Shown here: positions 37,834-58,249 of the stretch, piece after piece
Position numbering within the stretch: the first letter of the stretch is position 1
Layout of the letters: each line of letters begins with the position of its first letter
The notes under the pieces: model-generated
The model's input: only the letters and a program-made list of their open reading frames with translations
What the model was told of the DNA's origin: nothing
Database searches by the model: none
Made by a program: the position numbers and the translations under genes
Assembly (NCBI GenBank): GCA_051599415.1
Contig: AP039691.1
Location: 62,001-126,000, forward strand
Reading direction: 5' to 3'
DNA length: 64,000 bases
Origin: Savitreella phatthalungensis
Lineage: Eukaryota

Positions 37834-40598
37834 GCTCTATCTATTAAAGGCAGAATTGTGCCTGTAAACGACGCAGGCCAAATGTCGGCTCTCGGCACGA
37901 AGCGTCTCGGGAACAATATTGCTCGCTTATTCTAGCAGGACGGAGCTGTCCCGTCATTATCCTGTGGGTCCTCTATTACTTTCTCCACCTGTTCACTGAG
38001 ACAGGCTAAGCGATCCGCCTTGAGGAATTCAAACGCGTCGCGTCTTTCGTTTTCATCGTTGCGTTACCTCGACACGACAAAAATGACAAAAATTTGGACG
38101 CTCAATGATGCTGTCCAACTCCGCCGGACTTCACGTGTGGCCATGAAGGGCAGTTTCGACGACGACTGCCGTCATCACCGCAGCACGCCAAAAAAGGAGC
38201 TTCTGACGCATTGTCAGCCCTGGATCCATCGTTCGCGCTTCCTCATCCGTGCCGGGCCGACGGGTTGACGTCTGTTGACCTGTCAACCTGCTGTCAGTGC
38301 TGCATCGACCACTAGATTGGCTTCTCCTGTGTCAGAGAAGAGCCAACACTGCATCGAGATTCTCTCTTTCCCGAATTCACGACCATAGAGCGGACTGTAA
38401 CTGGACGCAGCCAAAGCACCTTTCCGAAATGTCGGTAAGATTGAAATTTTGATTGGACCTCTCTCATTCAGATTCTGACCTCGACGAGCTATCATTATTT
38501 GCGGGAGCCGCCTGGTGAATGTAGAATAGGATGAATTCAGTGCTGTTACTATGTATTTGACAGAATAGCACCTCAATTGCATATCAATAATCTGTTGCCG
38601 ATGTTGGAAGGATTCCGTCTTGTGATAGATAGGGCTAGAGACAGCGCCTCTTCCGCTCCCTCGTGCTGTATTTTCCACCCCGCCCAATGCCCAAATTCAG
38701 ACGACTTCACCATCCACCTCATCAACGGCACGTATGAATGAGTAAAAATGGTGTTCTGTTCTGGTAAACATCGTTCGTTATACAGTACCAGCGCTTCCCG
38801 AGAGGCCTGCCCCTCTTTTCCAAACATATGATCACTGCCTGTTTCCGGCAAACCGACCAAAGACACGTTCAGGTGCGACATTGAGCGATAAGCAGTCAAT
38901 CGGATTAAGATCATGACAGGCAGTCGATTTAGTACATCACTTGATGGATCTATTCAATTATTCCCGTGTTCCATATGACCCTCGAAATCGAAACTGCACA
39001 GGAGATCTAAACAATTCATGGGTTCATGGTGCGCACTATGTAGAACTATCCATACACAAACCTCCATAGTTGATCTTGATCTCAGCGACTCTAAATTCGT
39101 GTAGATCCACCACAATGAAACACGACAGCTGAAACATTTGCAACTATTATGCACCATCACGCCTTGTTTTCCCTTGCAATCATTCGTCACCGAAATAGAC
39201 ATGAGATCGCCATCAGCAGTCGACAGGTGTCAGACAATCCCCTTCAGTGGCGGTGAGCGGCAACGGCACATTCCAAAAGATCCGCTGGACATCATCTCAG
39301 GGGACGGATACACGGCAAGTTGGCAAGATCCGTGTATGCTGTGACAGTAATCACATCAGATCACATCACATCACATCCAAGAAACGCACCACAACATCTG
39401 GCAGTGCGCTCAGCGAGATTCTTCCTTTTAGAGCTATCGATGGGATGCTGGAGCCGCAGCTGCAAGAACGACGTCAGTGCCGGTTGCACGAGTCAAAGTT
39501 AAGAGAAGCTCTCTCAAGCGTGAAAATGTGGTGCCCCAACTTGAAGGTTCGATTCTTCCACGTATTGCCTTCTATTCTCATCTCTACACTCCATCGCTAA
39601 AGCAAGCCTGATATGTTTTTCCAGCCCATGGCAATCAGGAAAGGGTGGAAAGTCACAATCCAGCCTGACTTTCGAATAAATATCTGAATACTGCAGCAAA
39701 ATTTGTTATTCTATGCACGGTAATGCGGGAAAACTGACGGCTTTCCCAATGCAGTAAGGGCTTCTCAAGAGGTCTATGTGCCCGTGGAATCAGAGGTCGG
39801 TCACAGCTTATGTCTTCTTATACCTCTTGAAGCTAAAGAAGGTGGGTATGCACTCAGAAAATCACCAGCCGTGTTTCTATCATCATCTCTAGCTCCAGCT
39901 TGACCCGACCGTGTGTTCGTCCCAATCGAGAAGGACGTCGCCGAAGCGGATGTCTCAGGAAGGTTCCTCTGCCCGTGGAGCCGACTGACTGGTGGCAGGT
40001 ACTGATTTTGAAGACACACTGTTTTACGACTCCGCCCATGCTGGTCCTACACTCTGTTCTGACACTTGCGTCCGAAACCTTCTGAACCATGACATTGACC
40101 AATCGTGCTTACGATTTAGCGACCTTCGTCACTGATCCAGGGCTGTGATCGCAAGGCCGTCGCGGCAACGTGCGCGCTTTACCGTTCCCCTCACTTGCAG
40201 ACGTGACGCTCGTAGCTAGGCTGTGCATCAACCTGGACCCCCCAGAATTTGTCCCTACCTGCTACGTTCAGTCGTCCTGCATACGCCCGCGGCCTATTTT
40301 CGCGGTTCCACAGGATTAAGGACGCGTGCTTTTGCTACCTTTGCACATCGATCACTTCCGCACTTCTCCTCACCCGATCGGTCAGGGCGTGCCTGACAGC
40401 CTACACTTGCGATGACGCCTGCCGTGCAGCTTGGAAGCTGCGGGAATCCGTCACGAATGCGGTCTCCGTGGGCGATCCACTGAAGATGATCTAACGAAGT
40501 GGAGATGTCTGTCATCAGGCACTTCACAAGCCTGCTGCGAATGGTCCGAATGGTTCGGTAGACGAGCTGGTGGGATGTCTTCGTGAAGACAACAATGC

Positions 40599-40605
40599 TA
40601 TAAGA
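40599..40605 (+). promoter_or_regulatory. TATA-like element upstream of the APAFS-repeat gene
   Basis: TATAAGA about 70 nt before ATG 40673; one mismatch to the TATA consensus. Confidence 0.4.
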
Positions 40606-40672
40606 GGACGATGTCCCTCCATGATGTAGACTCCATCCTCATCGGTCGCTCGCCCTTACATCCATATTCATC

Positions 40673-43600
40673 ATGATCGCCGGAGCCATCATTGCCGGCG
40701 CTTTCCTTGGCGCGGCTGAGGCTCTCAACGTTCCTCAGTTCCTTCGTCGTCAGGATGTTAGCATCAGCCAGCGCACCGTCCACGCCACCGTTCCGGCCAT
40801 CACCATTGAGCCGAAGACTATTGACGCCACGGTGCCTGTGCCCGTTGTCAACAGCCCAACCAGCACGCCGACCGTCGTTGTCACTGTCGGTGTGCCACGT
40901 ACTATCGAGGGCCCGACCATTACCGTGCCAAACATTGTGATTCCCTCACAGGCACCAGAAGGTCCACACTACACAATCACACTCAACGACCCTCCGTCGC
41001 TTTCGCCACCGTCATTCACAGCCCCGAGCTTCAGTGTACCTCAGCCACCGGCTTTCAGCGCTCCCTCCTTCAGCGTGCCTGCCTTCCAGGTTCCGTCTTT
41101 CTCGGCTCCTACATTCCAGGCTCCGACCTTCGCCTTGCCCAGCGCGCCCGCACAGCCCTCCGGCGGAAACGGCTCACCACAGCCAGCTCCCTCCGCACCT
41201 GCCTTCAACGTGCCATCTCTTGCCATCCCCTCGCTCCCTGCCTTCTCTGCACCGGCCTTCTCTGCACCGGCCTTCTCTGCACCGGCCTTCTCTGCACCGG
41301 CCTTCTCTGCACCGGCCTTCTCTGCACCGGCCTTCTCTGCACCGGCATTCTCTGCACCGGCATTCAGCGCACCAGCTGCACCATCGCTGCCAGCCTTCCC
41401 TTCGCTGAGCGCACCAGCCTTCAGCGCCCCGGCCTTCTCTGCACCGGCCTTCTCTGCACCGAGCTTCGCTGCACCATCGCTCCCAGCTTTCAGCGCACCC
41501 AGCCTGCCGTCGCTCGCTGCGCCCTCGCTGCCTGCCTTCTCTGCACCAAGCTTCGCTGCACCCTCGCTGCCGGCCTTCCCATCGTTCAGCGCCCCGGCCT
41601 TCTCTGCACCAGCCTTCAGCGCACCTGCTGCACCCTCGCTTCCTGCCTTCTCGGCACCAAGCTTCGCTGCACCTTCGCTTCCTGCCTTCTCGGCACCTAG
41701 CTTCGCTGCACCTTCGCTGCCTGCCTTCCCGTCGTTCAGCGCCCCGGCCTTCTCCGCACCAGCATTCAGCGCACCGGCCTTCAGCGCACCAGCTGCACCA
41801 TCGCTTCCTGCCTTCTCTGCACCAAGCTTCGCTGCACCTTCGCTGCCTGCCCTCCCGTCGTTCAGCGCCCCGGCCTTCTCTGCACCAGCATTCAGCGCAC
41901 CGGCCTTCAGCGCACCAGCTGCACCATCGCTTCCTGCCTTCTCTGCACCAAGCTTCGCTGCACCTTCGCTGCCTGCCTTCCCGTCGTTCAGCGCCCCGGC
42001 CTTCTCTGCACCAGCATTCAGCGCACCGGCCTTCAGCGCACCAGCTGTCCCATCACTTCCTGCCTTCTCGGCACCAAGCTTCGCTGCACCTTCGCTTCCT
42101 GCCTTCTCGGCACCAAGCTTCGCTGCTCCTTCGCTGCCTGCCTTCCCATCGTTCAGCGCCCCGGCCTTCTCCGCACCAGCATTCAGCGCACCGGCCTTCA
42201 GCGCACCAGCTGCACCATCGCTTCCGGCCTTCTCGGCGCCTAGCTTTGCTGCACCTTCGCTGCCTGCCTTCCCATCGTTCAGCGCCCCGGCCTTCTCCGC
42301 ACCAGCATTCAGCGCACCGGCCTTCAGCGCACCAGCTGCACCATCGCTTCCTGCCTTCTCTGCACCTAGCTTTGCTGCACCTTCGCTGCCTGCGTTCCCA
42401 TCGCTGAGCATCCCGGCCTTCCCATCGCGCAGTGCCCCGGCCTTCAGTGCACCAGCTGCACCATCGCTTCCTGCCTTCTCTGCACCTAGCTTTGCTGCAC
42501 CTTCGCTGCCTGCCTTCCCATCGTTCAGCGCTCCGGCCTTCTCTGCACCAGCATTCAGCGCACCTGCTGCACCCTCGCTGCCTGCCTTTTCGGCGCCTAG
42601 CTTTGCTGCTCCATCGCTTCCTGCCTTCTCGGCACCAAGCTTCGCTGCTCCTTCGCTGCCTGCCTTCCCATCGTTCAGTGCTCCGGCCTTCTCTGCACCA
42701 GCATTCAGCGCACCTGCTGCACCCTCGCTGCCTGCCTTTTCGGCGCCTAGCTTTGCTGCTCCTTCGCTGCCTGCCTTCCCGTCGTTCAGCGCCCCGGCTT
42801 TCCCATCCTTCAGCGCCCCGGCTTTCTCTGCACCCGCATTCAGCGCACCAGCTGCACCATCGCTTCCTGCCTTCTCCGCACCAAGCTTCGCTGCACCTTC
42901 GCTGCCTGCGTTCCCATCTTTCAGTGCTCCTGCTTTCCCATCGCTGAGCGCTCCGGCCTTCCCATCGCGCAGTGCACCGGCCTTCAGCGCACCAGCTGCA
43001 CCATCGCTTCCTGCCTTCTCTGCACCTAGCTTTGCTGCACCATCGCTTCCTGCCTTCTCGGCACCAAGCTTCGCTGCACCATCGCTTCCTGCCTTCTCGG
43101 CACCAAGCTTCGCTGCTCCTTCGCTGCCTGCCTTCCCGTCCTTCAGCGCTCCGGCCTTCCCGTCCTTCAGCGCTCCGGCCTTCTCTGCGCCAGCTGCACC
43201 TTCGCTGCCAGCCTTCTCTGCACCTAGCTTCGCTGCACCTTCGCTTCCTGCGTTCTCTGCACCAAGCTTTGCTGCTCCTTCGCTGCCTGCGTTCCCATCG
43301 CGCAGTGCACCGGCCTTCAGCGCACCAGCTGCACCATCGCTGCCAGCCTTCCCTTCGCTGAGCATTCCGGCCTTCAGCGCTCCTGCCTTCTCAGCACCGA
43401 GCTTCGCTGCTCCTTCGCTGCCGGCCTTCCCGTCGTTCAGCGCGCCGGCCTTCCCATCCTTCAGCGCTCCGGCCTTCTCGGCACCAGCTGCACCTTCGCT
43501 TCCTGCATTCTCTGCACCTAGCTTCGCTGCACCTTCGCTGCCTGCGTTCCCATCCTTCAGCGCTCCGGCCTTCCCGTCGTTCAGCGCCCCGGCCTTCCCG

Positions 43601-44521
43601 TCGTTCAGCGCGCCGGCCTTCCCATCCTTCAGCGCTCCGGCCTTCTCGGCACCAGCTGCACCTTCGCTTCCTGCATTCTCTGCACCTAGCTTCGCTGCAC
43701 CTTCGCTGCCTGCGTTCCCATCGCTGAGTGCCCCAGCCTTCTCGGCTCCTACTCTCCCGAGCCTGTCCCTCCCGAGCCCACCGAAGCAGTCGTCTGCTAC
43801 CACGACCTCGAGCTTCGTACTCCCAACGCTTTCGCTCCCGAGCTTGTCTCTTCCTTCCCTGGCTGCTCCGTCGTTCAGCGCCCCGGCCTTCCCGTCGTTC
43901 AGCGCTCCCGCCGCTCCATCGTTCAGCGCTCCCGCCGCTCCATCGTTCAGCGCTCCCGCGTTCCCATCGCTCAGCGCTCCGGCGTTCCCGTCCTTCAGCG
44001 CTCCGGCGTTCCCGTCCTTCAGCGCTCCTGCCTTCCCGTCCTTCAGCGCTCCTGCCTTCCCGTCGCTCAGCGCTCCTGCGTTCCCATCGTTCAGCGCTCC
44101 CGCTGCGCCATCATTCGCAGCCCCGTCCGCACCAGCCTTCTCTGCACCATCGTTCGCGGCCCCCTCGCTGCCGGCTTTCCCGTCGATCTCGGCTCCTGGA
44201 GCACCCTCGCTATCATTGCCGTCTCTGGCCCTGCCAACCTTGAGCCTGCCCAAGCCAGCTTCGACGACAGCGAAGCCAGTCACCTCCAAGACCACTACCT
44301 CAAGCAGCGTCGAACCCACAACCACCTCGTCGGCTGTGCGCTCGACCATGACGACTGTTACTCGCACCAACAGCGCTGCCGCATCGTTCGCCTCCGAGCT
44401 CTCCTCGTTCCTGGCATCGATCTCGACTTTGCGCCCTCACGCAACCTCGGCGACGCTCGGTGGCACACAGACCATCACGTTGGCACTGCCCCAGATCACA
44501 GTCCCTGCCATCGGCTTCTAA
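40673..44521 (+). CDS. Secreted Ala/Pro/Ser/Phe tandem-repeat protein (APAFS-type repeats), 1282 aa
   Basis: Signal peptide [17 protein letters not shown], a dibasic RR-Q site, a roughly 950-aa repeat core and a Ser/Thr-rich tail. Repeat copies differ mostly at synonymous positions, which supports this frame as coding. Confidence 0.88.
41240..41344 (+). repeat. Seven perfect 15-bp units (GCCTTCTCTGCACCG) at the head of a coding minisatellite extending to about 44190
   Basis: Read directly; followed by variants and higher-order units. Confidence 0.95.
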
Positions 44522-47500
44522 GGCGAAGGCTATGCACAGGCTGGATTCCCTCTTACTCCCGCTAGTCGTACCCATCGATGAAGGGATTCATGATGAGCAA
44601 CGTCACAACGATAGAAACTTGCTCTTTCACCTTTGTAAATACTTCAGCTTAGCGACAGTTCTGTAGTCTTTCTCAAGATTCCCTTTCGAACATATTTGGA
44701 ATTCCTGAAGCAGTTGAGTATCATTGTCGAGTCCCTGAGGTGTGCTTTCTGCCTCAAAGCAAGCACCGATGACTGGTCTTATAGGAATGAACCATCATCG
44801 AAGCATCCAGACGGCATGTAGGATGAGCAGGTCGACATACATGCACCTGCACGATTGAGCTATTCGGTAATGAACACCTTGCGGAGCGGAGTTCTCGCTT
44901 CAGAATCAAGATCAAGACGCGGCACAATACTGGACATTCTATCATCGACATGTGACAGGGATTGAGATCACTTAGACTATCTACACGCTCTACAACGGGA
45001 CGACTTGAAGAAGACGCAGAAACGTTTGTCTCAAGCGAAGGAATTCTACGTGTGGCATGCGATTCAAGCAAGGGGGGCCAAGATAACGATAGTCGTAGGA
45101 AAGACAAACGCCAGTAGTATGGGCAAGTGAATCAGATGTGCAGCATGCCAGGACATACCGTTACCAATTAGCGGGCCGCAAGCAAGGTCGCAAGCGTGAT
45201 GCTATGCATTGCCAGGTTTGGGTGGTTGAGAAGTCGGGCGCGGGGATAGATGGTTCACTCAGCCATAGTGGTCACTGACTGAAACAGTACGTGACCAAAG
45301 ATGGCATTCGATGCACGTGCAATTTGTATGCTCCGTCTCAGCATAGCCAAGTCTCAACATTCCGGACATACGCGGATATCGCTTGTCAAGAAAGACCAGA
45401 CATCACAGTCACGTCCTCCAGGTCGCTCGCTGGATGCAGTACGGGGACGAATTGCAAATGAACAATATATGAGATATCATTATGATCAGAAATTCTCAAA
45501 TCTTCATATCCAGAGTTCTCGGCGTCGTGGCAAAGTACTCATACAAACCAGTACTCTGGATCGCGTAAGATGAAAGCTGAATTGACACTGGATTAATCGG
45601 GCACCTAACCATCTCAAACCTCCTCGCACACGTGTCAATTCAGATATCAGACCAAAATTCAGATGCGAATTACCCCGGTACGGCGGTCGACGAGGAGCAT
45701 CTCAAATTTATCCAATTTGAACAGAATCTCTTAAGCGCGGAATATAAGGGTCATACATATTCATGAACCAGAGTACTGGTATATGTAAAACGCAGTTGTG
45801 TCTCTGAACCCCGCCCTTTGAGCGGTTTGAATGTAAGAAGATGAGTCGGGCCAGCTGGCTCTCAATTCTATCTTGTGTGCGCACGCAAAGCGATATTCAT
45901 GACTGTAGCTGACCGAAGCTGCGAAATTCCAAACGATCCAGCCGATCTCTTACAAGACTTACTGGACTGTAACTGGGAGATGAGTCAAGCATGAGCTTGT
46001 ATATGAATGCTTTGAGTTGGCTGGCGTCGCCGGACAGGTGGACTCGTGGCCGAGAGACTTTGTGATCTACCTATCGAGCGCGATTATCTAGCTGATCGAT
46101 CTCCCGTGAATCAGCACTACTAGCTGTTTGGCTTTCGATGCATCGATTCTGCTTTCTCCTCGTACTGTCTGAGATACACGCATGACCGGGAGAATCACTC
46201 GCCATCTGCTAGTTCTGACTAGCTGCACAGACCTCCCTACCTAACCCTTCATTTCTTCACAAGTCACTCAACACAAACATCTTCACGCAGGTCTTACCCG
46301 ATGTTCTTCCATACTCAAAAGACGATTGTGTCTATCCCCAAGCATGCATTCCCATCCTCTACTACGATGTAGCAGCTTTCTTTCTCGCTCTCGGCTTCGC
46401 GCTCGGCTTCACACGTTGCATTCATTGAGAGAAAAGCCCGGCCACGCGACACGGATATGCAGGTTTGTGGAGGGAAAAAGCCGAAGCGTAGGCGAGAGAT
46501 GTAGCTACAGAAGGCTGGTTTGCAAAATGCCCCACAGAATCGATCGGATAGAACGCATGTCAAATACTCGTGGCAGATTTTACTAGAATCGACTGTCCAT
46601 AGTCCGTCCTGCCATGGTGCTCAGTAATGACTAGAGCCTGGAGTGGCTTGAACAATGAATTCAGAGTTGGACGGTCTCCAGACCCAACGCTCGCCTGGGT
46701 TGGCGACATGAAGGTACCATCAATCTACTCATCCGAACACGTTGTCTTGACCATAGAGTGGAGAGCCCTTTTAAAATGCTTCACGATTGGTCAATCGCCA
46801 CAGCTTATACTGCGCTTCACCTTGTCCACTTACTAGAAGCCTCTTCCGCGGAGGGGGCGGGTGGCATTGTGACCGATCACTGAAGATGGTAGATCTGTCA
46901 AGTGTATGTTCCGTTAGTCGGGAGAATCCAAGGTAACGAGGGAGAGAAAGAGTCAGGACGAAGAAGCAGGTTACACTCCGAGCAGATATGAACTCTACCG
47001 TCTACTACTCTCAGTCATTGTCTCTCGATTGACTTGAGAATTATATGATATACCGAATTAGATTCATCCTGTTCTCTCTCTTTCCCACTTTCGCTTTCTC
47101 TCTCATTCAGACATTCGCTCGATTAGGTCAAAAGGCCCAACATAAGTTTGTTCCATTCTTTCATACCTACTTCAGATTGAAATCTAAATTGAGAAGCTCA
47201 AAGCTGATTCGTCATAGACTTTCCCCAAAATTCAGTACTGACGCAAGTCATCATTCGAATCACATCTACACACGTACTTACAGACACTCACACTCACATA
47301 CTCACATCTCACCCACAGACACAAGCTAAACTCAAGCACATTCATGAACTCATCAGCCAGCTTCCCATGTAGCCAGCTATCCTCAACAGACGACAATCCA
47401 CCCATTACCCATCTCGGCATCTATCTCCATCAACAGCGCCCAGACACCTTCACAACACCTTCTAGCTCGCTACAAACCAACGAAAGCGCTGGCGCCAAAG

Positions 47501-48538
47501 AACTACATGTCTCACTCGCACACCATGACAGTACCAACCAGACCAGACTAAAGCCAAAGCTTCTATGCCCCGCTCCTTCAATCTGAACGAATGAACACGT
47601 TGGATAAAGACAACCAAGCTCATCTGAACCTTCTCTCCGATGAGCTATCGGTCGGTCGCCCAGTCTTCCCCTCCTCTGATGAACCAATCTATCACATCTA
47701 ACGGTCCGACGAAAGCTCCCCGTAGCTGACCGTGCAATGCTCAGCTACGAGTTATTCCCTCGTGCGCGCACTTTCATCTCGAGTAAGTGAGGGTAGCTTG
47801 AACCCCTCCCGTCTCAACGTCTACCGTCCTAGACATTATCCAGAGAGAGCCATAGGTCATGTCAGTCCTGCATCCTCCCCGCACCTCGCTTCCCAGGCGG
47901 CTTCCACGCGCGCGCCTTCGCGCCTCTATGCACATACACCAACAATGATACACGTTTTTGATGCTAGCTGGAGAGACGAATGCACTATCTTCTGCATCTT
48001 CGAATGTACTACCGATCTGACAGCTTCAACAGCTCGCTTGCAGATCTCGCTTCCTCGCTTGCTTCCCAGCTCAAACTGTCTGCTCACGTCAAGCTCCATA
48101 GCTGATGTCACTGTCACAGCAAGTCGGCGCGCAACGGCGGCGGCTGCAATGAGTCCTTTCTACGTCCCTCTGCCTGACAGAGCTCGACAGGTAGTCCATC
48201 CTGCAGGACAATGTGGGGAAAAAAGCCACGGCGTCCACAGGTGGACTACGACCATGCACAATTCGCTCAGCTCCACCCCTCCTCGCCCTTTGTGCTGTAG
48301 GTCCCATTGTAAGTGGTAATCTTTGCTCGCAGAGCAAACAACATCATGGACCTTCACGATGACCGGGTAGTTAAGCCGCCGACTGCCCATGTCGTCCTTC
48401 TAGACCATCGTCCACGACGACATCGACTCTGTCGATACAAGACTTGCCGACACCGTGTTGATCGACGCAGTCATCTCCATCCTCAGTTGCTCTACCTGAT
48501 CTCAGTCGCGAACAAGACCTTTCGTGAGAGAGTCCAAT

Positions 48539-51500
48539 ATGCGTTTCGCTTCTCAGGTAGCAACGCTCGCCCTGTTGGCCTCGTCCGCAGATGCCTTACC
48601 ACAATTCGGCGCGAACCCTATAGGCGCTGTGCTCTCGCCGATCCTCGGCGGCGGTCAGCCATCCACTACCACATCTAGTTCGTCGATGCTCGGCTTCACG
48701 CCATCACCGATAGCTCCCGTGGCGCCGCCGCCGAGCTCTAGCACGACCACCGCCGGCGGTGCTTCGACTATCTCATCGTCAGCTCCATCTTCCTCTGCGC
48801 CACAGCAACAGCAGCAGAGTTCCTCTTCTCCACAGCAACAGCAGCAGAGCTCCCAAGCACCAGCTCCTGCACAGGCATTCACTCCGATCCCGAACGTGGT
48901 CGTGGTCGTTACATCGTCCAACTACCTGCCACCTGCTTCGTCCAGCACCGCAACCACGAGTTCATCAGCACCACCCGCAGCTCTCATCTCATCGGTGACA
49001 AATCTGCTGAGTCCTATCATTAACATCTTCAGCAACCCCTCACTCCAGCAACCAGCTTTGCCAATCTCCAGCACCAACCCACTCGCCGCCGGTGCATCGC
49101 AGATCCAGGCCGGCGTCGCCTCTGGCGCATCTCAGCTGCAGGCAGGTGCACCATCTGGCAACCCCCTCGCAGCAGCCGCATCACAGGTACAGGCAGGTGC
49201 TGCCTCCGTCGCTAGCCAAGTCGAAGCTGGAGCACCGTCTGGCAACCCGCTGGCCGCAGGAGCATCACAGGTACAGGCTGGTATCGCATCGGCCGCCAGC
49301 CAGGTCCAGGCCGGTGCACCATCGGGCAACCCTCTGGCCGCAGGAGCATCACAGGTACAGGCTGCCGTTGAGTCTGGCGCTTCACAGCTTCAGGCAGGTG
49401 CACCGTCAGGCAATCCGCTGGCAGCTGCCGCATCACAGGTTCAGGCCGGTGTCGCCTCCGTCGCTAGCCAGGTCGAAGCCGGCGCACCATCGGACAACCC
49501 TCTGGCCGCAGGAGCATCACAGGTACAGGCTGGTATCGCATCGGCCGCCAGCCAGGTCCAGGCCGGAGCACCGTCTGGCAATCCACTCGCTGCGGGTGCG
49601 TCCCAGGTTCAGGCAGGTGTCGCCTCCGTCGCTAGCCAGGTCGAAGCTGGTGCACCGTCTGGCAACCCGCTGGCCGCAGGAGCATCACAGGTACAGGCTG
49701 GTATCGCATCGGCCGCCAGCCAGGTCCAGGCCGGTGCACCGTCTGGCAATCCACTCGCTGCGGGTGCGTCCCAGGTTCAGGCAGGTGTCGCCTCCGTCGC
49801 TAGCCAGGTCCAGGCCGGAGCACCGTCTGGCAATCCACTCGCTGCGGGTGCGTCCCAGGTTCAGGCAGGTGTCGCCTCCGTCGCTAGCCAGGTCGAAGCT
49901 GGAGCACCGTCTGGCGACCCTCTGGCCGCAGGAGCATCACAGGTACAGGCAGGTGTCGCCTCCGTCGCTAGCCAGGCCCAGGCCGGAGCGCCGTCTGGCA
50001 ATCCACTCGCTGCGGGTGCGTCCCAGGTTCAGGCAGGTGTCGCCTCCGTCGCTAGCCAGGTCGAAGCCGGCGCACCATCGGACAACCCTCTGGCCGCAGG
50101 CGCATCACAGGTACAGGCTGGTATCGCATCGGCCGCCAGCCAGGTGCAGGCCGGCGCCCCATCAGGCAATCCTCTAGCAGCAGCTGCGTCCCAGGTTCAG
50201 GCAGGTGTCGCCTCCGTCGCTAGCCAGGTCCAGGCCGGAGCACCGTCTGGCAATCCACTCGCTGCGGGTGCGTCCCAGGTTCAGGCAGGTGTCGCCTCCG
50301 TCGCTAGCCAGGTCGAAGCTGGAGCACCGTCTGGCAACCCTCTGGCCGCAGGAGCATCACAGGTACAGGCCGGTGTCGCCTCCGTCGCTAGCCAGGTCCA
50401 GGCCGGAGCACCGTCTGGCAATCCACTCGCTGCGGGTGCGTCCCAAGTACAGGCAGGTGTCGCCTCTGCGGCTAGCCAGGTCGAAGCCGGCGCACCATCG
50501 GGCAACCCTCTAGCAGCAGCCGCGTCACAGGTACAGGCAGGTGTCGCGTCCGCCGCCAGCCAGGTGCAGGCCGGTGCCCCATCAGGCAACCCGCTGGCCG
50601 CTGGGGCTTCCCAGCTGGAAGCTGGCATTGCATCCGCTGTGTCTCAATTTCAGGCAGCAGCGCCTTCGGACAACCCCTTGGCAGCAGGAGCCAGTCAACT
50701 CCAGGCAGGAATCGCATCAGCCGCGAGTCAGTTCCAGGCTGCTGCACCAAGTGGCAACCCCGTCGCCGAAGGTGCATCGCAACTCCAGGCTGGCGTCGCC
50801 TCGGCAATTTCGCAGTTCCAGGCAGCAGCCCCGTCTTCCGCTCCGGCGTTCCCGAACGACAACCCTCTTGCCGCGGCAGCAAGTCAATTGCAAGCTGGCG
50901 TAGCTTCTGCTGCCAGTCAGTTCCAGGCAGCAGCTCCGTCTGGCAATCCTCTGGCTGCGGGAGCATCTCAGATCCAGGCTGCCGTTGAGTCCGGAGCATC
51001 ACAGCTGCAGGCAGCAGCACCATCGGGCAACCCGCTTGCTGCGGGTGCTTCGCAGGTCGAGGCAGGCGTCGCGTCTGCTGCCAGCCAGGTGCAAGCCGGA
51101 GCCCCATCAGGCAATCCTCTAGCAGCAGCTGCGTCTCAGGTTCAGGCCGGTGTCGCATCCGCGGTCAGTCAAGTTGAAGCCGGTGCGCCTTCAGGCAACC
51201 CACTCGCTGCAGGTGCTTCGCAGGTTCAAGCAGGTGTCGCCTCCGCGGTCAGCCAAGTTGAAGCCGGCGCACCATCAGGCAATCCACTCGCAGCCGCCGC
51301 ATCACAGGTTCAGGCCGGTGCCGCCTCCGTGGCTAGTCAGGTCCAGGCTGGTGCACCATCTAGCAACCCACTCGCTGCTGGTGCTTCGCAGGTCGAGGCA
51401 GGTGTCGCCTCTGCTGCTAGCCAGATCCAGGCAGCCGCACCCAGCGGTAATCCTCTTGCCCAGGCACTAGCATCTGCGGCCTCGCAGCTACAAGCCGGCG

Positions 51501-54500
51501 CGTCGTCAAATCCGCTTGCGGCCGGCGCAAGTCAGTTGCAAGCTGCAATCGCTTCTGGAATCTCTCAGCTCGAGGCCGTTGCAACACCAAGCAGCAATCC
51601 TATCGCCGATGGTGCCAGCCAGCTCCAGGCAGGACTGGCTTCTGGTCAACCCTCCGGAAATCCTCTGATGGCGGTAGCATCGCAGATTCAGGGAAACGTG
51701 CTATCAGTCGCCTCGCAGCTACAAGCAGCCGCTCCCAGTGGGAACCCACTCGCGTCGGTTGCTTCTCAGATTCAGGCTGGTGTCGCTTCTGGCGTCTCGC
51801 AGCTTGAGGCCGCTGCCCCATCTGGCAATCCCCTGGCATCCGCTGCATCTCAGGTACAAGCTGCTGTCGCCTCTGGCGCGTCTCAGCTCGAAGCTGGTCT
51901 GCCTAGCGGCAACCCAGTGGCTAGCATCGTCTCTCAGGTCCAAGCAGGTCTCCCATCCGGCAATCCTGTCGCTAGCATCGTGTCGCAGATCCAGGCAGGC
52001 CTGCCATCGGGCAACCCGGTCGCTAGCATCGTATCTCAGGTCGAAGCAGGTCTGCCATCGGGCAACCCGGTCGCTAGCATCGTCTCTCAGGTCCAAGCAG
52101 GTCTCCCATCGGGCAACCCGGTCGCTAGCATCGTATCTCAGGTCGAAGCAGGTCTGCCGTCTGGCAACCCAGTGGCTAGCATCGTCTCTCAGGTCCAAGC
52201 AGGTCTCCCATCGGGCAACCCGGTCGCTAGCATCGTATCTCAGGTCGAAGCAGGTCTGCCGTCTGGCAACCCAGTGGCTAGCATCGTCTCTCAGGTCCAA
52301 GCAGGTCTCCCATCGGGCAACCCGGTCGCTAGCATCGTATCTCAGGTCGAAGCAGGTCTGCCGTCTGGCAACCCAGTGGCTAGCATCGTCTCTCAGGTCC
52401 AAGCAGGTCTCCCATCGGGCAACCCGGTCGCTAGCATCGTATCTCAGGTCGAAGCAGGTCTGCCATCTGGCAACCCGGTCGCTAGCATCGTATCTCAGGT
52501 CCAAGCAGGTCTGCCGTCTGGCAACCCAGTGGCTAGCATCGTCTCTCAGGTCGAAGCAGGTCTGCCGTCTGGCAATCCTGTGGCTAGCATCGTATCTCAG
52601 GTCGAAGCAGGTCTGCCATCTGGCAACCCGGTCGCTAGCATCGTCTCTCAGGTCCAAGCAGGTCTCCCATCCGGCAATCCCGTGGTCAGTGTCATCTCGC
52701 AAATTCAAGCAGCTCTTCCGAGTGGCAATCCTGTCGCGAGCATTGTCTCGCAGATCGAAGCTGGCGTACCGAGCGGCAATCCTATTGCCAGCGTTGTCTC
52801 GCAAATTCAGGCTGGCCTTCCGACTGGCAATCCCGTTGCCAGCGTCATCTCTCAGATCCAGGCTGGACTGCCGAGTGGCAATCCTGTCGCGAGCATTGTA
52901 TCTCAGGTTGAGGCTGGACTGCCAAGCGGCAACCCTATCGCCAGCGTCGTTTCCCAGATCCAGGCAGGACTTCCAAGTGGCAACCCTGTGGCCAGCATCG
53001 TCTCGCAGGTCGAGGCGGGTCTTCCGAGTGGCAACCCTGTCGCCAGCATCGTCTCTCAGATCCAGGCGGGACTTCCTACAGGTAATTCTGTGGCCAGCGT
53101 TGTTTCCCAGATCCAGGCTGGTCTTCCTAGCGGCAACCCGGTCGCCAGCGTTGTTTCCCAGATCCAGGCAGGACTTCCAAGTGGCAACCCTGTGGCCAGC
53201 ATCGTCTCGCAGATTGAGGCGGGTCTTCCGAGTGGCAATCCTGTCGCCAGTGTCATCTCTCAGATTCAAGCCGGCCTCCCAAGCGGGAACCCAGTGGCAA
53301 GCATCGTCTCCCAGATCCAGGCTGGTCTTCCTACCGGCCTGCCGTCTCCGAGCAACAACCCGATCGCTGGTGGTGTTTCTCAAATCGTTGGAGCTATCTC
53401 GAGTGCTGCTCCTGGTGGATCAGATGGTCCACTCGCTGGAGGCACGGCAAACCCGATCAACAGCATTATTAACCAGTTGCCAACTGCTCTTCCATCCGGC
53501 AATCCAATCCAGGTCGTCCTGTCATCACTCTTGCCAGCACTGACGAGCAACCCGGTCGCGTCAATCATCCAGAATTTGCCATCGGGATTGCCGTCCAATG
53601 GCTTGCCGTCCAATCCTCTTCCGATTCAGAGCATTCTCTCGCAGATCACCAACCAGCCATCCCTGCCCATCAACTTGCCTTCAGTCATTCAGAGTGTCAT
53701 CTCCCAGATCACGGCTCAACCGTCCCTGCCGATCAACCTGCCCAGTGTTGTGCAGAGCGTTGTCTCACAGATCACCTCACAGCCAACACCGACCCTGCCT
53801 GTAAATCTACCAGGCATTCTGTCAAGCGTTGTTTCGCAGATCACGGCCCAGCCTACGCCGACTTTACCAGTCAATGTTCCAAGCATCCTCTCGAGCGTGC
53901 TCTCTCAGCTTACAAACTTGCCAACCAACCTTCCGATCACACTACCGCCTGTACTCTCCAGCATTCTCACCGGATTGCCGATCACCCTGCCAATCGGCCC
54001 GCAGTCGACCAATATCGTTGGACCTTCAGGCTCGGCGACCATTCTGCCAATTGGCAGCACTGCGATCCCTTCCACCCTTCAGACCATTACAACAAGCAAC
54101 CAGCAGCAGCCGGGCTCATCGCCAACTCCGAACCCAGGAAGCGGTACATCGCCTGGCAACGGTAGCGCCGGCGGCAACACCGGCGGCAACACTGGAGGCA
54201 ACACTGGAGGCAACACTGGAGGCAACACTGGAGGCAACACTGGAGGCAACACTGGAGGCAACACTGGAGGCAACACTGGAGGCAACACGGGAGGAAACAC
54301 TGGAGGAAACACTGGAGGCAACACCGGTGGCAATGGCGTCGTGGCCCCAGGCAGCGGCATCGCGCCGGGTTCTGGCAGCGCTGGCTCGAATCCCGTGACC
54401 GGTGGCAACACTGGCAGCGGAGCATCGAGCCCGATCGGCTCAGGCTCCAACACTGGTGCAGGTGCAGTCGCTGGATCCAACTCTGGTTCCGGCTCCAGCT

Positions 54501-54793
54501 CGAGTGCTGGCTCATCGCCGGCCGCTGGTGCTGCCGGCTCTACTTCAGGCTCGACAGCTGGCTCTGGAGCGGCGTCCGGTTCGGCCGATGGTGCCGCCAT
54601 CCTCGGCACTTCCAGGACTCTCCCCGGAGATTCCTCGTCTGGCTCAAGCTCGAGCTCCGGCTCAGGCTCATCCACCGGTGGCAACGCTGCCACCTTGCCA
54701 AAGTCCAATGGAGCATCCTCCCTCGTCACACCTCAGAAGTGGTTCCTGACAGGCGTTGCGACAATCGTCGTCACCGCCCAGTTCGTCTTCTAA
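48539..54793 (+). CDS. Giant secreted, probably GPI-anchored tandem-repeat surface protein, 2084 aa
   Basis: Signal peptide MRFASQVATLALLASSADA-LPQ (first ATG 48539), 28-aa and 17-aa SGNP repeats, (GGNT)13, a Gly/Ser stalk and a GPI-like C-terminus SNGASSLVTPQKWFLTGVATIVVTAQFVF. Confidence 0.9.
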   Translation: MRFASQVATLALLASSADALPQFGANPIGAVLSPILGGGQPSTTTSSSSMLGFTPSPIAPVAPPPSSSTTTAGGASTISSSAPSSSAPQQQQQSSSSPQQQQQSSQAPAPAQAFTPIPNVVVVVTSSNYLPPASSSTATTSSSAPPAALISSVTNLLSPIINIFSNPSLQQPALPISSTNPLAAGASQIQAGVASGASQLQAGAPSGNPLAAAASQVQAGAASVASQVEAGAPSGNPLAAGASQVQAGIASAASQVQAGAPSGNPLAAGASQVQAAVESGASQLQAGAPSGNPLAAAASQVQAGVASVASQVEAGAPSDNPLAAGASQVQAGIASAASQVQAGAPSGNPLAAGASQVQAGVASVASQVEAGAPSGNPLAAGASQVQAGIASAASQVQAGAPSGNPLAAGASQVQAGVASVASQVQAGAPSGNPLAAGASQVQAGVASVASQVEAGAPSGDPLAAGASQVQAGVASVASQAQAGAPSGNPLAAGASQVQAGVASVASQVEAGAPSDNPLAAGASQVQAGIASAASQVQAGAPSGNPLAAAASQVQAGVASVASQVQAGAPSGNPLAAGASQVQAGVASVASQVEAGAPSGNPLAAGASQVQAGVASVASQVQAGAPSGNPLAAGASQVQAGVASAASQVEAGAPSGNPLAAAASQVQAGVASAASQVQAGAPSGNPLAAGASQLEAGIASAVSQFQAAAPSDNPLAAGASQLQAGIASAASQFQAAAPSGNPVAEGASQLQAGVASAISQFQAAAPSSAPAFPNDNPLAAAASQLQAGVASAASQFQAAAPSGNPLAAGASQIQAAVESGASQLQAAAPSGNPLAAGASQVEAGVASAASQVQAGAPSGNPLAAAASQVQAGVASAVSQVEAGAPSGNPLAAGASQVQAGVASAVSQVEAGAPSGNPLAAAASQVQAGAASVASQVQAGAPSSNPLAAGASQVEAGVASAASQIQAAAPSGNPLAQALASAASQLQAGASSNPLAAGASQLQAAIASGISQLEAVATPSSNPIADGASQLQAGLASGQPSGNPLMAVASQIQGNVLSVASQLQAAAPSGNPLASVASQIQAGVASGVSQLEAAAPSGNPLASAASQVQAAVASGASQLEAGLPSGNPVASIVSQVQAGLPSGNPVASIVSQIQAGLPSGNPVASIVSQVEAGLPSGNPVASIVSQVQAGLPSGNPVASIVSQVEAGLPSGNPVASIVSQVQAGLPSGNPVASIVSQVEAGLPSGNPVASIVSQVQAGLPSGNPVASIVSQVEAGLPSGNPVASIVSQVQAGLPSGNPVASIVSQVEAGLPSGNPVASIVSQVQAGLPSGNPVASIVSQVEAGLPSGNPVASIVSQVEAGLPSGNPVASIVSQVQAGLPSGNPVVSVISQIQAALPSGNPVASIVSQIEAGVPSGNPIASVVSQIQAGLPTGNPVASVISQIQAGLPSGNPVASIVSQVEAGLPSGNPIASVVSQIQAGLPSGNPVASIVSQVEAGLPSGNPVASIVSQIQAGLPTGNSVASVVSQIQAGLPSGNPVASVVSQIQAGLPSGNPVASIVSQIEAGLPSGNPVASVISQIQAGLPSGNPVASIVSQIQAGLPTGLPSPSNNPIAGGVSQIVGAISSAAPGGSDGPLAGGTANPINSIINQLPTALPSGNPIQVVLSSLLPALTSNPVASIIQNLPSGLPSNGLPSNPLPIQSILSQITNQPSLPINLPSVIQSVISQITAQPSLPINLPSVVQSVVSQITSQPTPTLPVNLPGILSSVVSQITAQPTPTLPVNVPSILSSVLSQLTNLPTNLPITLPPVLSSILTGLPITLPIGPQSTNIVGPSGSATILPIGSTAIPSTLQTITTSNQQQPGSSPTPNPGSGTSPGNGSAGGNTGGNTGGNTGGNTGGNTGGNTGGNTGGNTGGNTGGNTGGNTGGNTGGNTGGNGVVAPGSGIAPGSGSAGSNPVTGGNTGSGASSPIGSGSNTGAGAVAGSNSGSGSSSSAGSSPAAGAAGSTSGSTAGSGAASGSADGAAILGTSRTLPGDSSSGSSSSSGSGSSTGGNAATLPKSNGASSLVTPQKWFLTGVATIVVTAQFVF
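49070..51904 (+). repeat. Coding array of about 30 84-bp (28-aa) units SGNPLAAGASQVQAGVASVASQVEAGAP
   Basis: Seen in the translation and DNA; degenerates toward the 3' end. Copy number is approximate. Confidence 0.9.
51905..53332 (+). repeat. Coding array of 28 x 51-bp (17-aa) units SGNPVASIVSQV(Q/E)AGLP
   Basis: 28 units counted, spanning exactly 1428 bp. Confidence 0.95.
54170..54325 (+). repeat. 13 x 12-bp coding repeat, (GGNT)13
   Basis: GGAGGCAACACT and variants, 156 bp. Confidence 0.95.
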
Positions 54794-55252
54794 AGGACTT
54801 TTCCTCCTTCCCACCCACCCACAAAACATCTCCAACTTTTTCTTACTATGTAGATATATCAAGTCAGTCGTACATAGCGCTAGCCTTCTTCCCCATATAC
54901 ATATTTTGTGGCACCCACCTAGACGTTCAGGAATCAGTTGACTTTTACTGGTTTTTGCCTGATCAGCCCGAATGAGTGTTGCAAGTCACGTGCTCAGGGA
55001 GTCTTCGTAGGAGTGTAGCTCGTGACTTGGCGTCATATCGAAGCGAGAGCACATGATGGATGTCACGCAATTCTATCTCGCCTTTTCAAGTACACCAGCG
55101 TTCGCAGACCATGCGCATCATCAACGACATACCAGACACTCGCGCGAACGCGCTCGTAAGACGGTAAACGATTTCATTAAACGGTCATTCGTAGGTGGGT
55201 CATAAAATGTTGGTCGTTACGGTGGGTTTGGAGTGAGGGTGCGATCAGATCG

Positions 55253-56638
55253 CTAGCTGACTGCGACTTGGATGGTGATGGGTGTTTGGTAAGCTAGTCG
55301 AGATTTCCGTCTCCCGTGCTCGCGCGGCGGCAAAATCATCCTGGCCCTGCCGCTACCACTGCCGACAGTCGATGAGGATGAAGGCCCTGTCAGATCAGCC
55401 AGTTTACCAGACCGGCGCATGTTGGTCTCGAGCACCAGGACTCTCAGGAAGTCCGCGTTCAGGCGAGGCTCCCGTGGTCGATCAGTCGTGCGTCTGTTTG
55501 GCATGATCAGATCGTCCTTGGTCGAGGCTTGCTGTTTCCGGCCTGTCCAGCTGGGTAGCTCGATCGGTGGCCGTTCATCGACGATGCTGCTGAAGGGACG
55601 CTCCATCTCGACAGCGTCGCCAAAGATGCGTGCTTGGACGGTCGTCGAGGACGATCGACATCCTTGCTGGGAGACCGGTCGCGGGATCTGCTGATGAGCT
55701 AGCATGCCTGCATTGCGGAGACCGAGTGGACCGGACATCGTTCCCCCAGAGATCAGGTCGTCGTGCTGCGCGTTGGCCAAGCTTGTGGCCAGGGAGGTGA
55801 GGGATGAGGTCAAAGCAGCGACCATGAGAGAAGCGCGTCGCTTTGCACGCCGCCCAAGCGCACGAGCAAGCCCCGAGGAGTTACCTCCGTTGCGAAAGTT
55901 CTGTGAGCTCGGAGAGATTTTGACGAAGTTGTTCGGTGCGGTAGCCTCGTCCAGGTCGTCAATATTGTCGGTGCTGTCGCTGCGCAGCGGATCACATGAC
56001 ACATTTACTGACTCACGCGGTGGACTGTTCCGGGGTGCTCTCGCGTTCCGTGCACGTGCAGAAGCCGCGGTCAGGTTGAAAGAGGAAGAGCGTGAAGTGT
56101 GCGCAGTGCTGCTGGACAGACTGCCGCTGAGGTCACTGTCCGCGCAAGTGGAGTCTGAAAATGAGCGGGAAAGTTCTGGGAGGCTGCTCGTGGCTGCCGT
56201 GATAGTGTCAGGTCTGTCCAGCAGGAACGCAAATGCTTCATCAGCTTCCGATGCCGCGATGGAGCCGACGGGGTCATCGGCGCGGTCACTCACATCATCA
56301 AAGATGCTGCTGATGCTGTCTGCTCGACGTGGCAGACTTGACCTGCGTGAGCTGATGCTAGATGAGGGAGGAGTGGTCGGTGCGGAAGGAGAGCCCGCAA
56401 GGTGACGCTTTGGCTTGAATCGAGGGATGCGGGTCTCTGCTAGAAGGACCGCAATGCTGTCTGCTGGCTGAGCCGCTGATGCTCGCATGGTCTTGCCAGG
56501 GATTGAGAGCGGTGACACTGCACTGACTGATGGGAGCTGTGATGGGATGTCGTTGATCGTTTGGACAATCTTGACTTCTGACGCTGATGCGCGCGCGGAC
56601 GCTGTCGTGAGTGGCAGTGGACCCACGAGATGACCCAT
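55253..56638 (-). CDS. Uncharacterised Ser-rich, largely disordered protein with an ordered C-terminal motif, 461 aa
   Basis: 1.4 kb ORF with first ATG at 56638. C-terminal block REPRLNADFLRVLVLETNMRRSGKL..GRARMILPPR resembles a motif I recall from fungal hypothetical proteins (unverified). Confidence 0.75.
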   Translation of the reverse strand: MGHLVGPLPLTTASARASASEVKIVQTINDIPSQLPSVSAVSPLSIPGKTMRASAAQPADSIAVLLAETRIPRFKPKRHLAGSPSAPTTPPSSSISSRRSSLPRRADSISSIFDDVSDRADDPVGSIAASEADEAFAFLLDRPDTITAATSSLPELSRSFSDSTCADSDLSGSLSSSTAHTSRSSSFNLTAASARARNARAPRNSPPRESVNVSCDPLRSDSTDNIDDLDEATAPNNFVKISPSSQNFRNGGNSSGLARALGRRAKRRASLMVAALTSSLTSLATSLANAQHDDLISGGTMSGPLGLRNAGMLAHQQIPRPVSQQGCRSSSTTVQARIFGDAVEMERPFSSIVDERPPIELPSWTGRKQQASTKDDLIMPNRRTTDRPREPRLNADFLRVLVLETNMRRSGKLADLTGPSSSSTVGSGSGRARMILPPREHGRRKSRLAYQTPITIQVAVS

Positions 56639-57160
56639 GGAGGGCTCCTTCACTGCGGATGTGGAATCTTGGGGTGACTTGTGTATGGCGCCGTCGTGTG
56701 AGGTGGCACTAGAAGTGGAGATTGGTTAGATTCGCGATTGGCGTCAGGTGTCAGTGCGACTCCCGGGCTTGTGAGTTGCTTATCGCGAGCAAAACGCTCT
56801 ACTTGAAACTCGGTCGGCGTCGTATCTTTGGTTGTGGTTTGAGTGGGAGAAAAGGATGAATAATGGGCGCGAGCGTTGTGGCGCGGGTATTGTTGAGAAT
56901 GCGCGTGACCGAGATAGACGTCGATTGGACAGGTCCTGCTGCTGCGACTAGTACTGATGCAGGTGATTGGATGGTTGGCAAATGATGCTGATAAGCCCTG
57001 GCAGCGCAACAGGTATCACAATGACAAAAGAAGTGAGTGATTGAGTGATGAATCAGATGAGCTGTCGTCACACCTGTTTCGACCCGCGCTGATGATATCG
57101 TACAAGTAACTCTGTGAATGTGTGAGCGAGTGAGTGATTGAATGAGCGAGTTAGTGGTGG

Positions 57161-57232
57161 TGAGTGAGTGAGTGAGTGAGTGAGTGAGTGAGTGAGTGAG
57201 TGAGTGAGTGAGTGAGTGAGTGAGTGAGTGAG
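57161..57232. repeat. (TGAG)18 microsatellite
   Basis: 72 bp perfect repeat with degenerate flanks, about 520 bp upstream of the minus-strand gene starting at 56638. Confidence 0.97.
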
Positions 57233-58249
57233 CGAGTGATAGATACTAAGGATAGCTAGTGACGAGATAAGACGCGTCCTCGTGACCTCCGAATCTCCCT
57301 TTTTCCCTTGCTCAATTTCATTTGATTTAACGACTGACTCGTTCCTTCAAATGTTCACTCACTTTCAATCAATCTCTTTCCTCTGTTTGATGAGCCTATT
57401 CCGAGTGCCGGGCTCGGACGGGCGTAATCGAAAGTCCAGTCCAGCGAAGGGGAAAAATTGTTTTCTCCTAGCTAGTAGAGATAAAGCCCATTTAGAGATA
57501 AAAAGGAAAAGACAAAGTTCAGTCAGATTCAGATGTTGGAAGTCAAATGAACGTACGGTATCAACTCCGCAGGCGGATTTTAGCACGGTAAGTCATCAAG
57601 TGAAGGAATAAACGGTTTGGGTGAGCAACTTCAGTATAAGCTTAGCGTATTCACAGTTGATAGCTATGAAATCTTTGATGAGTCTTGTTTCTAACTACTC
57701 TCAGATTGACAGGAGCTAAATTTCAAGTCTTCAATCTATGGAGGACTTCAAAATTGAAAGAGTCATGTAGAAAGGTTTGAATTGGTGGAAAAGAATATCG
57801 TCTTTTCCGACGGTCTCTAGACTGGATTTATTCTTTGTCAGGTTTCTGCATTGGGGAATAGACTGTTGGAAAGTTCAAGTGCCTTTCAACCAATTGAATC
57901 AAGCCGATAATAACTCACTCCAATTTCTCAACCGCTGGAAATTCTGAAGATCTGAATCTAGATGCACAGGCTCACTTAACAGACCCGATCAGAATACAAT
58001 CAACCGAACAAAGTCCAGCCTGCTTCCAGCTACCATTCAGATTGTATCAGCACGGGAGAACAAACCAGTATCCAATCTGAAGGAATCCATTCTATATAGT
58101 AAATGCTCATGGAATATACTCAAATCTAAATGGTTAAATCACCCACTGGGTCAGTCACCCATTCACACTTTTAGAGTTGAGTGCCATTGCTTTTATCATG
58201 CTCTAGAGCTCGCCTGAGCACTTCTGCTTCTTAGAGCTCTAAATCATTC

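Follow-up and report, generated by a model that had tools for sequence, protein, structure and literature searches.

The window analysed here is a stretch of 64,000 nucleotides from Savitreella phatthalungensis (contig AP039691.1, here C3, positions 62001-126000; assembly of 12.74 Mb in 27 contigs). Within a region of few genes (37834-58249, here the island), it carries two adjacent plus-strand genes for putatively secreted repeat proteins, denoted gene A (40673-44521) and gene B (48539-54793). The locus raises the question of what each protein does at the cell surface and whether the two form one system. An initial annotation had proposed that an anchored helical scaffold and a released hydrophobic polymer together build a water-repellent or adhesive coat. 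The reading that we prefer, with middling confidence, is that A and B are lineage-specific, lectin-less surface glycoproteins of the adhesin or matrix type that act separately, B as an anchored binder of apolar surfaces and A as a secreted matrix glycopolymer. Most likely they lie side by side because secreted genes cluster in this genome.

Gene B encodes, in a single open frame, a protein of 2084 residues with no Cys, 4 Lys/Arg, 39 Asp/Glu and 20% Ser plus Thr. A predicted signal peptide (residues 1-19, ending in A-D-A; 48539-48595) is followed by a Ser/Pro/Gln-rich N-terminal region that holds a beta-prone Val run (residues 119-126; 48893-48916) and no folded lectin domain. The repeat array, with 2.4% acidic and no basic residues, consists of 28-residue units (49073-51907; 30 of exact length), 17-residue units (51908-53335; 27 of exact length) and degenerate helical units of 21-23 residues (53336-53983), the last being the most hydrophobic part. 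Downstream are a Gly/Ser-rich stalk with a run of 14 GGNT tetrapeptides (54173-54333) and a signal resembling that for a glycosylphosphatidylinositol (GPI) anchor, composed of a candidate omega site at Asn2057, a spacer and a 17-residue hydrophobic tail (54707-54790).

New here is the architecture of the B units, which are built as Asn-Pro-capped 6+11+11 and 6+11 residues. Each 28-mer comprises a six-residue Pro/Asn-Pro linker and two 11-mers, and the 17-mer, a linker with a single 11-mer, is the 28-mer minus one 11-mer. Within the 28-mers, identity reached 0.61 at lag 11 as compared to at most 0.30 at 12 other lags. Plotted on a 3-11 wheel, Leu, Val, Ile and Ala occupy one face and Ser and Gln the opposite face, and the hydrophobic moments, calculated at 98 degrees, are 0.25-0.26 and 0.37 (shuffle p 0.005 and 0.043). 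The lag-11 identity and the segregated apolar face are those of an 11-mer amphipathic helix. AlphaFold2 models, which are of low confidence and were made without a real alignment, placed a single helix in each unit and packed none with confidence (mean predicted local distance difference test score 56 and 40; predicted template modelling score, pTM, 0.28-0.30). Together with the hydropathy of the tail, the periodicity and the moments agree with the amphipathic-helix scaffold and GPI-like tail that the initial annotation had described.

A very long array of small residues, without aromatics and with a moment of about 0.25, likens B to perilipin-4 and other lipid-surface proteins with 11-mer (3-11) helices, such as apolipoproteins and alpha-synuclein. 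In the available text of PMC5889406, perilipin-4 has 11-mer repeats with a moment of 0.257 and almost no large hydrophobic residues, is unfolded in solution, coats oil directly and binds more strongly with increasing length, and the charge on its polar face matters for targeting. B differs in its predicted extracellular location, its GPI-like tail, its near lack of charge and the six-residue Asn-Pro linker that recurs every 11 or 22 residues; it has no PAT or four-helix-bundle domain and shows no homology. Membership of B in the perilipin family was rejected, given the absence of a Pfam match, the signal peptide and the nearly uncharged polar face. Apolipoprotein A-I, made of Pro-punctuated 22-mers, is a further likeness.

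The tail of B has an N-G-A triplet at residue 2057, and its best 11-residue hydropathy is 2.09. The corresponding value in A is 1.55, in a stretch that contains Pro and Gln; this C-terminus lacks the hydrophobicity of a clear GPI signal, in agreement with the initial annotation, which had noted no clear anchor in one of the two proteins. The signal peptides of both proteins were called by hydropathy and A-x-A motifs only, and the rules applied to GPI signals, signal peptides and Kex2 cleavage are the commonly known ones. Dfg5/Dcw1-type GH76 enzymes transfer GPI proteins to wall glucan. A gene of this family is present in the genome (one PF03663 match, 462 bits, G000:C7), and transfer of B to wall glucan is therefore possible.

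Gene A encodes, also in a single open frame, a predicted secreted polymer of 1282 residues that consists mainly of Ala (26%), Pro (22%), Ser (21%) and Phe (13%). Pro, Ala, Ser and Thr together make up 73% of the chain, Ser plus Thr 25%; there is no Cys, and charged residues are limited to 15 Lys/Arg and 9 Asp/Glu. The putative signal peptide (residues 1-17, ending in A-E-A) precedes a nine-residue propeptide that ends at RR 25-26 (40673-40750 for both). This is the only dibasic site in either protein and corresponds to the Kex2-like site reported in the initial annotation. Next comes a Val/Thr/Pro-rich N-terminal region (40751-41008), beta-prone at residues 66-74 and with TVP[AN]I motifs at 39 and 84. 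The other traits that had been ascribed to both proteins, namely signal peptides, Val-rich beta-prone segments near the N-terminus (Val/Ile/Thr-rich 7-mers at A66-74 and B119-126) and Cys-free, nearly charge-free bodies, were recovered as well.

The repeat body of A (41237-44242) is made up of about 240 tri- and pentapeptide units that each end in Pro, including AFSAP (67), SLP (42), AFP (34), SFSAP (27), SFAAP (25) and AAP (18). Successive Phe/Leu residues are spaced by 5 (118 times) or 3 (81 times), and the aromatic rings would be spread round a polyproline-type chain, not along one face. The Thr/Ser-rich C-terminal region (44243-44518) includes an amphipathic helix at 1234-1252 (shuffle p 0.009) and a terminal TVPAI at 1276. 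The latter repeats the N-terminal motif at 39, a five-residue match found post hoc (shuffle p 0.008). A minus-strand open reading frame (ORF) of 1102 residues opposite A (41041-44349) was rejected as a gene: it is a shadow, open because its wobble position is shared with the frame of A, which in this part has no Tyr or His and 6 Gln.

A had been described as a hydrophobic Pro/Phe polymer. Its Pro and Phe content and its unanchored appearance fit that description; its Ser, present in nearly every unit of 3-5 residues, does not. With Ser at such density, A is probably heavily O-mannosylated, as fungal biology would lead one to expect, and mature A could be a glycopolymer of amphiphilic rather than simply hydrophobic character. 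N-glycosylation sequons number one in A and one in B.

Differences among repeat units indicate that A and B are real genes, with repeats under protein-level selection. Per site, the first, second and third codon positions differ by 0.08/0.08/0.47 among the 28-mers of B and by 0.14/0.04/0.46 among its 17-mers. The ratio of nonsynonymous to synonymous differences is 0.137 for 19 28-mers, 0.151 for 27 17-mers and 0.36-0.37 for the units of A (135 pentamers and 98 trimers, with distinct unit types pooled). Same-sample contigs match the non-repeat parts of the A/B region with 0 differences. The C-terminal coding end of A was found in two other studies, one of them a phyllosphere metagenome, at 98-99% identity and in one case with an in-frame 3-nt insertion, and pieces of the spacers were found in these studies at 90-99% identity. 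Among the low-depth contigs of other samples, none bridges A to B and none covers B; the uncovered parts are no evidence of absence. The exact A and B sequences are absent from a collection of 15 billion proteins, in contrast to 7 of the 8 neighbours looked up. We also observed that the same-sample contig over the C-terminal end of A (44035-44550) has a depth of 282, about 4 times the 68-78 of neighbouring contigs. None of its 31-mers recurs in the window, and no second copy exists in the assembly; depth does not equal copy number.

Pfam returned no family for whole A or whole B at E<=0.01, and 0 families for the N-terminal 190 (A) and 179 (B) residues at E<=1. Neither protein thus matches a characterised adhesin family in Pfam, and the PA14/GLEYA, Flo11, Als, CFEM and hydrophobin domains that the initial annotation had failed to recognise are indeed not found. 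Matches of B pieces to Sde2_N_Ubi_yeast (35 bits) and VIT_2 (24 bits), although above the cut-off, were rejected as summed repeat artefacts with no single passing stretch. Several known classes were set aside on the same evidence: the Flo/Epa (PA14, GLEYA), Flo11, Als, Hyr/Iff, CFEM and WSC adhesins, whose ligand domain is missing; hydrophobins, secreted proteins of about 100 residues with eight conserved Cys; and the DIPSY adhesins of Schizosaccharomyces and Msg of Pneumocystis, A and B having neither Cys nor a match to these domains. Searches of the genome itself for DIPSY and class I hydrophobins were blank, with controls silent too, and are not evidence of absence.

The comparison with Ustilago repellents failed, since these require Kex2 sites between repeats. 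In Ustilago maydis Rep1, as presented in the accessible part of PMC4617103, Kex2 cleavage separates the repeats of 34-55 residues and yields peptides that form amyloid; in A the single dibasic site precedes the mature N-terminus, and B has none. What remains in common, according to the same text, is a secreted protein with amphipathic repeats from a plant-associated dimorphic fungus and a proposed attachment to hydrophobic surfaces.

A better likeness is to the domain-less GPI adhesins of yeasts, for which the part of PMC6023273 at hand names Hwp1, Hwp2, Eap1 and Pga22 of C. albicans and Fig2 and Aga1 of S. cerevisiae. It lists as typical features a signal peptide, repeats, a GPI signal, a dibasic site, I/V/T cores and Gln runs, and states that adhesin repeats bind through the hydrophobic effect. 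Like these proteins of 600-2500 residues, A and B have a signal peptide, tandem repeats, an I/V/T core and high Ser/Thr, with no ligand domain; B adds Gln runs and a GPI-like tail, and A the dibasic site. In contrast to the Thr-rich beta repeats of the yeast proteins, the repeats are Ala/Gly/Val/Gln helices in B and Pro/Ala/Phe units in A. Further differences are the absence of Cys, the single N-glycosylation sequon in each protein and the lack of detectable sequence similarity. By analogy with this general profile, the surface or matrix role suggested in the initial annotation appears plausible. The characterised adhesins of the Taphrinomycotina covered by the same source are Gsf2 and Map4/Mam3 (DIPSY) of Schizosaccharomyces and Msg of Pneumocystis. 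They come from the same subphylum and are likewise secreted proteins with repeats; some of them lack GPI and may be retained through beta-aggregation, as A may be. A and B differ in lacking Cys as well as any lectin, DIPSY or Msg domain. In the literature, no paper on fungal repeat adhesins with a GPI anchor and amphipathic helices acting on cuticle was found, most subscription journals being outside the reach of the search, and nothing came up on A or B themselves.

Genome-wide, all 55 matches to the B-unit pattern and all 50 matches to the A-unit pattern fall inside the two genes, indicating that both are single-copy and have no paralog in the genome. The search with termini and repeat profiles that the initial annotation had called for was carried out with the repeats of B and the N-terminus of A, and produced no convincing homolog. 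B 1095-1830, compared with proteins of 1146-3647 residues, gave 1 unrelated multidomain match (7999 scored). For A, the protein search covered the N-terminal region among shorter proteins: A 12-150 gave 0 of 224 against proteins of 30-704 residues. Of 1.84 billion representatives searched by full HMMER with B 1040-1260, 49 matched, none below 1e-30, and 36 of these have only the 17/34/51 period in common with B. The metagenome scan with B repeats confirmed 0 of 431 candidate stretches. In the ESM Atlas, A had a best value of 0.84 with low recognition and B no usable match, which is no evidence of novelty. Against PDB sequences, the A N-terminus found nothing below E 0.29, and the B 28-mer profile matched only a pair of designed helical bundles (E 0.002-0.005). 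Foldseek with the low-confidence B models found nothing at E<=0.001; the best Z score of a fold match (7.7 over 56 residues, root-mean-square deviation 2.5) is within background.

One of the 49 matches stands apart. P0132, a hypothetical protein from the assembly of the fern Adiantum nelumboides, combines a fungal-type Atg22-like part with a repeat tail and resembles a fused gene model. Alone among the matches, it has ten Asn-Pro-capped units of 17/21 residues in the N-P-V...Q-V-Q register of B, at 38-40% identity. P0132 could be both fungal, as a contaminant, and a genuine relative; homology and convergence are not separable here because the repeat is only a 17-mer. Fungal contamination of that assembly was not confirmed in a literature search.

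Whether A and B act together was judged from their genomic setting. Gap and window statistics cover C3:1-252000, with 102 single-exon ORFs of at least 150 residues as crude gene calls, and gaps are upper bounds. Secreted low-complexity genes account for 4 of the 102 ORFs and form two adjacent pairs (p ~0.001 by chance). The second pair lies on the minus strand about 20 kb beyond the island (C3:135457-140896), between two expansin-like genes (EXPB1_D1, DPBB), so that pairing appears to be a habit of this genome. Its proteins, both Pro-rich, are of 162 residues with PPAFSF motifs reminiscent of A and of 538 residues with Pro/Ser/Tyr/Thr/Gly repeats. In the text of PMC7036362 available to us, secreted genes are clustered in Taphrina and the clustered genes are co-induced in T. 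deformans. As clustering is general both here and in Taphrina, and clusters in Taphrina are also co-induced, co-regulation alone would not mean one structure. A look-up of RNA runs containing the locus returned none. With a second secreted pair nearby and no contig of another sample that bridges the genes, the claim that A and B make up one system is not supported so far.

A third secreted cluster was seen at C3:180197-200106, with about 13 tandem ORFs of 340-540 residues that have a W-x-L-x-R-I-S motif in common. Three of these were scanned; one gave a weak Peptidase_S8 match (E 3.5e-12) and two gave no match, and we read the cluster as a diverged subtilase-like family.

Both genes follow long non-coding regions, as first described at 2.8 and 4.0 kb: 2839 nt before A (37834-40672) and 4017 nt before B (44522-48538). 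Both are among the five longest of 101 gaps (ranks 2 and 5 between them; median 539). Yeast adhesin genes such as FLO11 are preceded by long promoters; a literature search on long adhesin-gene promoters returned nothing direct. The spacers contain no Rfam family at gathering score, no tRNA, no long repeats and no transposon-like ends. They have in common three exact words of at least 13 nt (13-14 nt, at 38392, 38459 and 40094 before A), with p of 0.025, 0.045, 0/400 and 0.0075 under four controls. This word test is post hoc, the words show no colinearity, and two of them are rich in C and T; the excess is weaker at 11-12 nt (p 0.04-0.16 at 11 nt). Two of the three words occur nowhere else in the genome, which is near expectation for 13-mers. 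The shared words weakly favour co-regulation of A and B. Upstream of B, a stretch rich in C (47.1-47.7 kb) and two donor-like GTAAGT sites (47783, 48309) suggest that its leader is long, possibly spliced and possibly with upstream ORFs. Two plus-strand ORFs of 124 and 110 codons, with no Pfam match, were observed within 47122-48538.

Under the preferred reading, B would be exported, acquire a GPI tag and remain attached to the cell surface through its C-terminus, exposing about 60 Asn-Pro-capped 3-11 helices. Each helix would be weakly amphipathic, with almost no charge or aromatics and no stable fold of its own. By analogy with the perilipin-4 helix on oil, the helices, with a Val/Ala/Leu face and a Ser/Gln face, could bind apolar surfaces by avidity, the candidate targets being cuticle wax, the air-water interface and other B molecules. 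A would shed its short propeptide at RR and remain one long Pro-punctuated, probably O-mannosylated chain, and its Phe/Leu residues and beta-prone ends may lead to self-association as a matrix or mucilage.

Several points weigh against this reading. B has no charged polar face of the kind that matters for perilipin-4 targeting, and its polar-face Ser may be glycosylated. Its mean hydrophobicity, 0.30 distally, increases to 0.66 close to the anchor, which is no obvious match for a distal adhesive tip, and its a-d-e-h hendecad equally fits helix-helix packing. Gln among the last ten residues of the tail makes the GPI call only moderate. The greater number of long common words upstream of A and B than in controls hints at non-independence, and the habitat is indicated only by low-depth pieces in one phyllosphere metagenome.

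The least unlikely of the alternatives is that neither protein is an adhesin, A acting in the extracellular matrix as a proline-rich sponge that takes up phenolics of plants or antifungal proteins and B as a bulky glycosylated coat masking glucan. The composition of A, nearly three quarters Pro, Ala, Ser and Thr with Phe every 3-5 residues, would suit such a sponge, and excerpts of the literature describe proline-rich fungal mucilage proteins with high affinity for phenols (PMC5431061) and a repetitive Ustilago surface protein, Rsp3, that shields hyphae (PMC5923269). The strict amphipathic 11-mer pattern of B, kept under selection, is left unexplained by it. Next in order, and likewise improbable, is the two-component coat, in which anchored B nucleates or tethers released A and the pair forms, at a single life stage, a layer that repels water or adheres. 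The two genes are indeed adjacent, co-oriented and single-copy, both follow gaps in the top 5%, both proteins have an I/V/T-rich core near the N-terminus, and the upstream words and the co-induced Taphrina clusters (PMC7036362, as available) could be read the same way. The limits of the word test and the second secreted repeat pair, which makes adjacency nothing special, stand against this coat, and A and B have no sequence in common.

Doubtful to a greater degree is a bolder form, a Taphrinales coat that arose independently of hydrophobins and repellents. In this form B would be a wall-anchored, perilipin-4-like chain of about 60 helices folding on cuticle wax, A a co-regulated, unanchored Pro/Phe glycopolymer that polymerises via TVPAI strands at both ends and is held by its anchored partner, and the Asn-Pro-capped 17-mer, through P0132, may mark a wider family of leaf-surface fungi. 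Ranked lower still is a structural rod, in which the hendecad helices of B pack into an intra-chain solenoid or inter-chain coiled coil and space or cross-link wall layers, with no binding to an external interface. The a-d-e-h pattern with small core residues, the designed helical bundles as sole PDB sequence matches and the hydrophobicity peak beside the anchor would fit a rod; the AlphaFold2 models lack consistent packing, though built on no real alignment, and no fold match exceeds background. An artefact of expanded DNA repeats or mis-assembly, with frames open by chance and not expressed, is very improbable, since the absence of exact A and B from the protein collection and the roughly fourfold depth at the end of A are set against the strong synonymous excess, the correctly placed signal peptides and tail, the recurring C-terminal end of A and the contigs without differences.

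The initial annotation had counted 12 genes in the first 37.8 kb and only 3 in the island, and counts of long ORFs gave the same numbers (1-37833 and 37834-58249). The low count and long gaps of a gene-sparse island are real; the sparseness is largely the size of two genes, because the coding fraction is 56% as compared to 64% in the first 37.8 kb. Among 47 sliding windows of 20.4 kb, the island has the lowest gene count; the coding fraction falls below that of the island in 6 windows, including 4 that overlap with it. Gaps of at least 2800 nt number 5 of 101, one being before a cyclin gene in the 'dense' part; this non-coding region (21392-24761, 3.4 kb) is comparable to the island gaps. The contig starts with 14 CCCTAA telomere repeats (C3:75-159), which places the island 100-120 kb from a telomere, and genes are likewise few in its first 20 kb, where the coding fraction is 42% and one gap measures 4.65 kb. 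Genes in the window are almost all single open frames with Pfam matches to ordinary fungal families, and include neighbours that we take to be P4-ATPase, MutL, cyclin, Set2, Ade2, Vps36, Psd and Ase1. The third island gene (55253-56638, minus strand) encodes a Ser-rich protein of 461 residues without signal peptide or Pfam family, apparently unrelated to A and B. A (GTGA)n microsatellite of 32 copies lies upstream of it (57114-57239).

The flanking Tfc7-like gene (37111-37833, plus strand; histidine phosphatase family, PF00300) bears on the host. Its nearest named relatives are from Taphrina deformans (68% over 70% of the length) and Protomyces lactucae-debilis (53%), environmental proteins are nearer (74-78%), and a one-gene tree gave an unresolved group with Taphrina, Protomyces, Neolecta and Lipomyces rows. 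These similarities identify the host as a Taphrinomycotina fungus near Taphrina, with no closer placement. The gene is one open frame, and most Taphrina-like homologs break after a CTHAATN motif, probably at an intron that has no counterpart in this lineage. A metagenome scan with a Tfc7 alignment kept 80 of 171 loci, all 30-45% identical and none Taphrinales-like; among these 80, none matched A, B, the 461-residue gene or Ase1, and 2 carried Psd1. In two distant fungal metagenome contigs, Tfc7-like and Psd genes are 3-7 kb apart, in differing orientations and with no A or B.

Taphrinales inhabit plant surfaces in their yeast form and build biofilms, and the available text of PMC12152203 reports that Taphrina strains do so on polystyrene and leaves. 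The literature examined, to the extent available, gives no characterised adhesin for them: the word 'adhesin' does not appear in the accessible parts of the Taphrina papers PMC7036362 and PMC12152203, and the subphylum list in that of PMC6023273 holds fission-yeast and Pneumocystis proteins only. B is a concrete and cheaply testable candidate of unusual design that would place the 11-mer helix chemistry of lipid-droplet coats outside the cell. If B does not bind, A and B would merely add to the orphan wall proteins rich in repeats that fungi commonly have. If B binds wax or oil, it would represent a new mechanism of fungal adhesion and a Cys-free, protease-poor biosurfactant scaffold.

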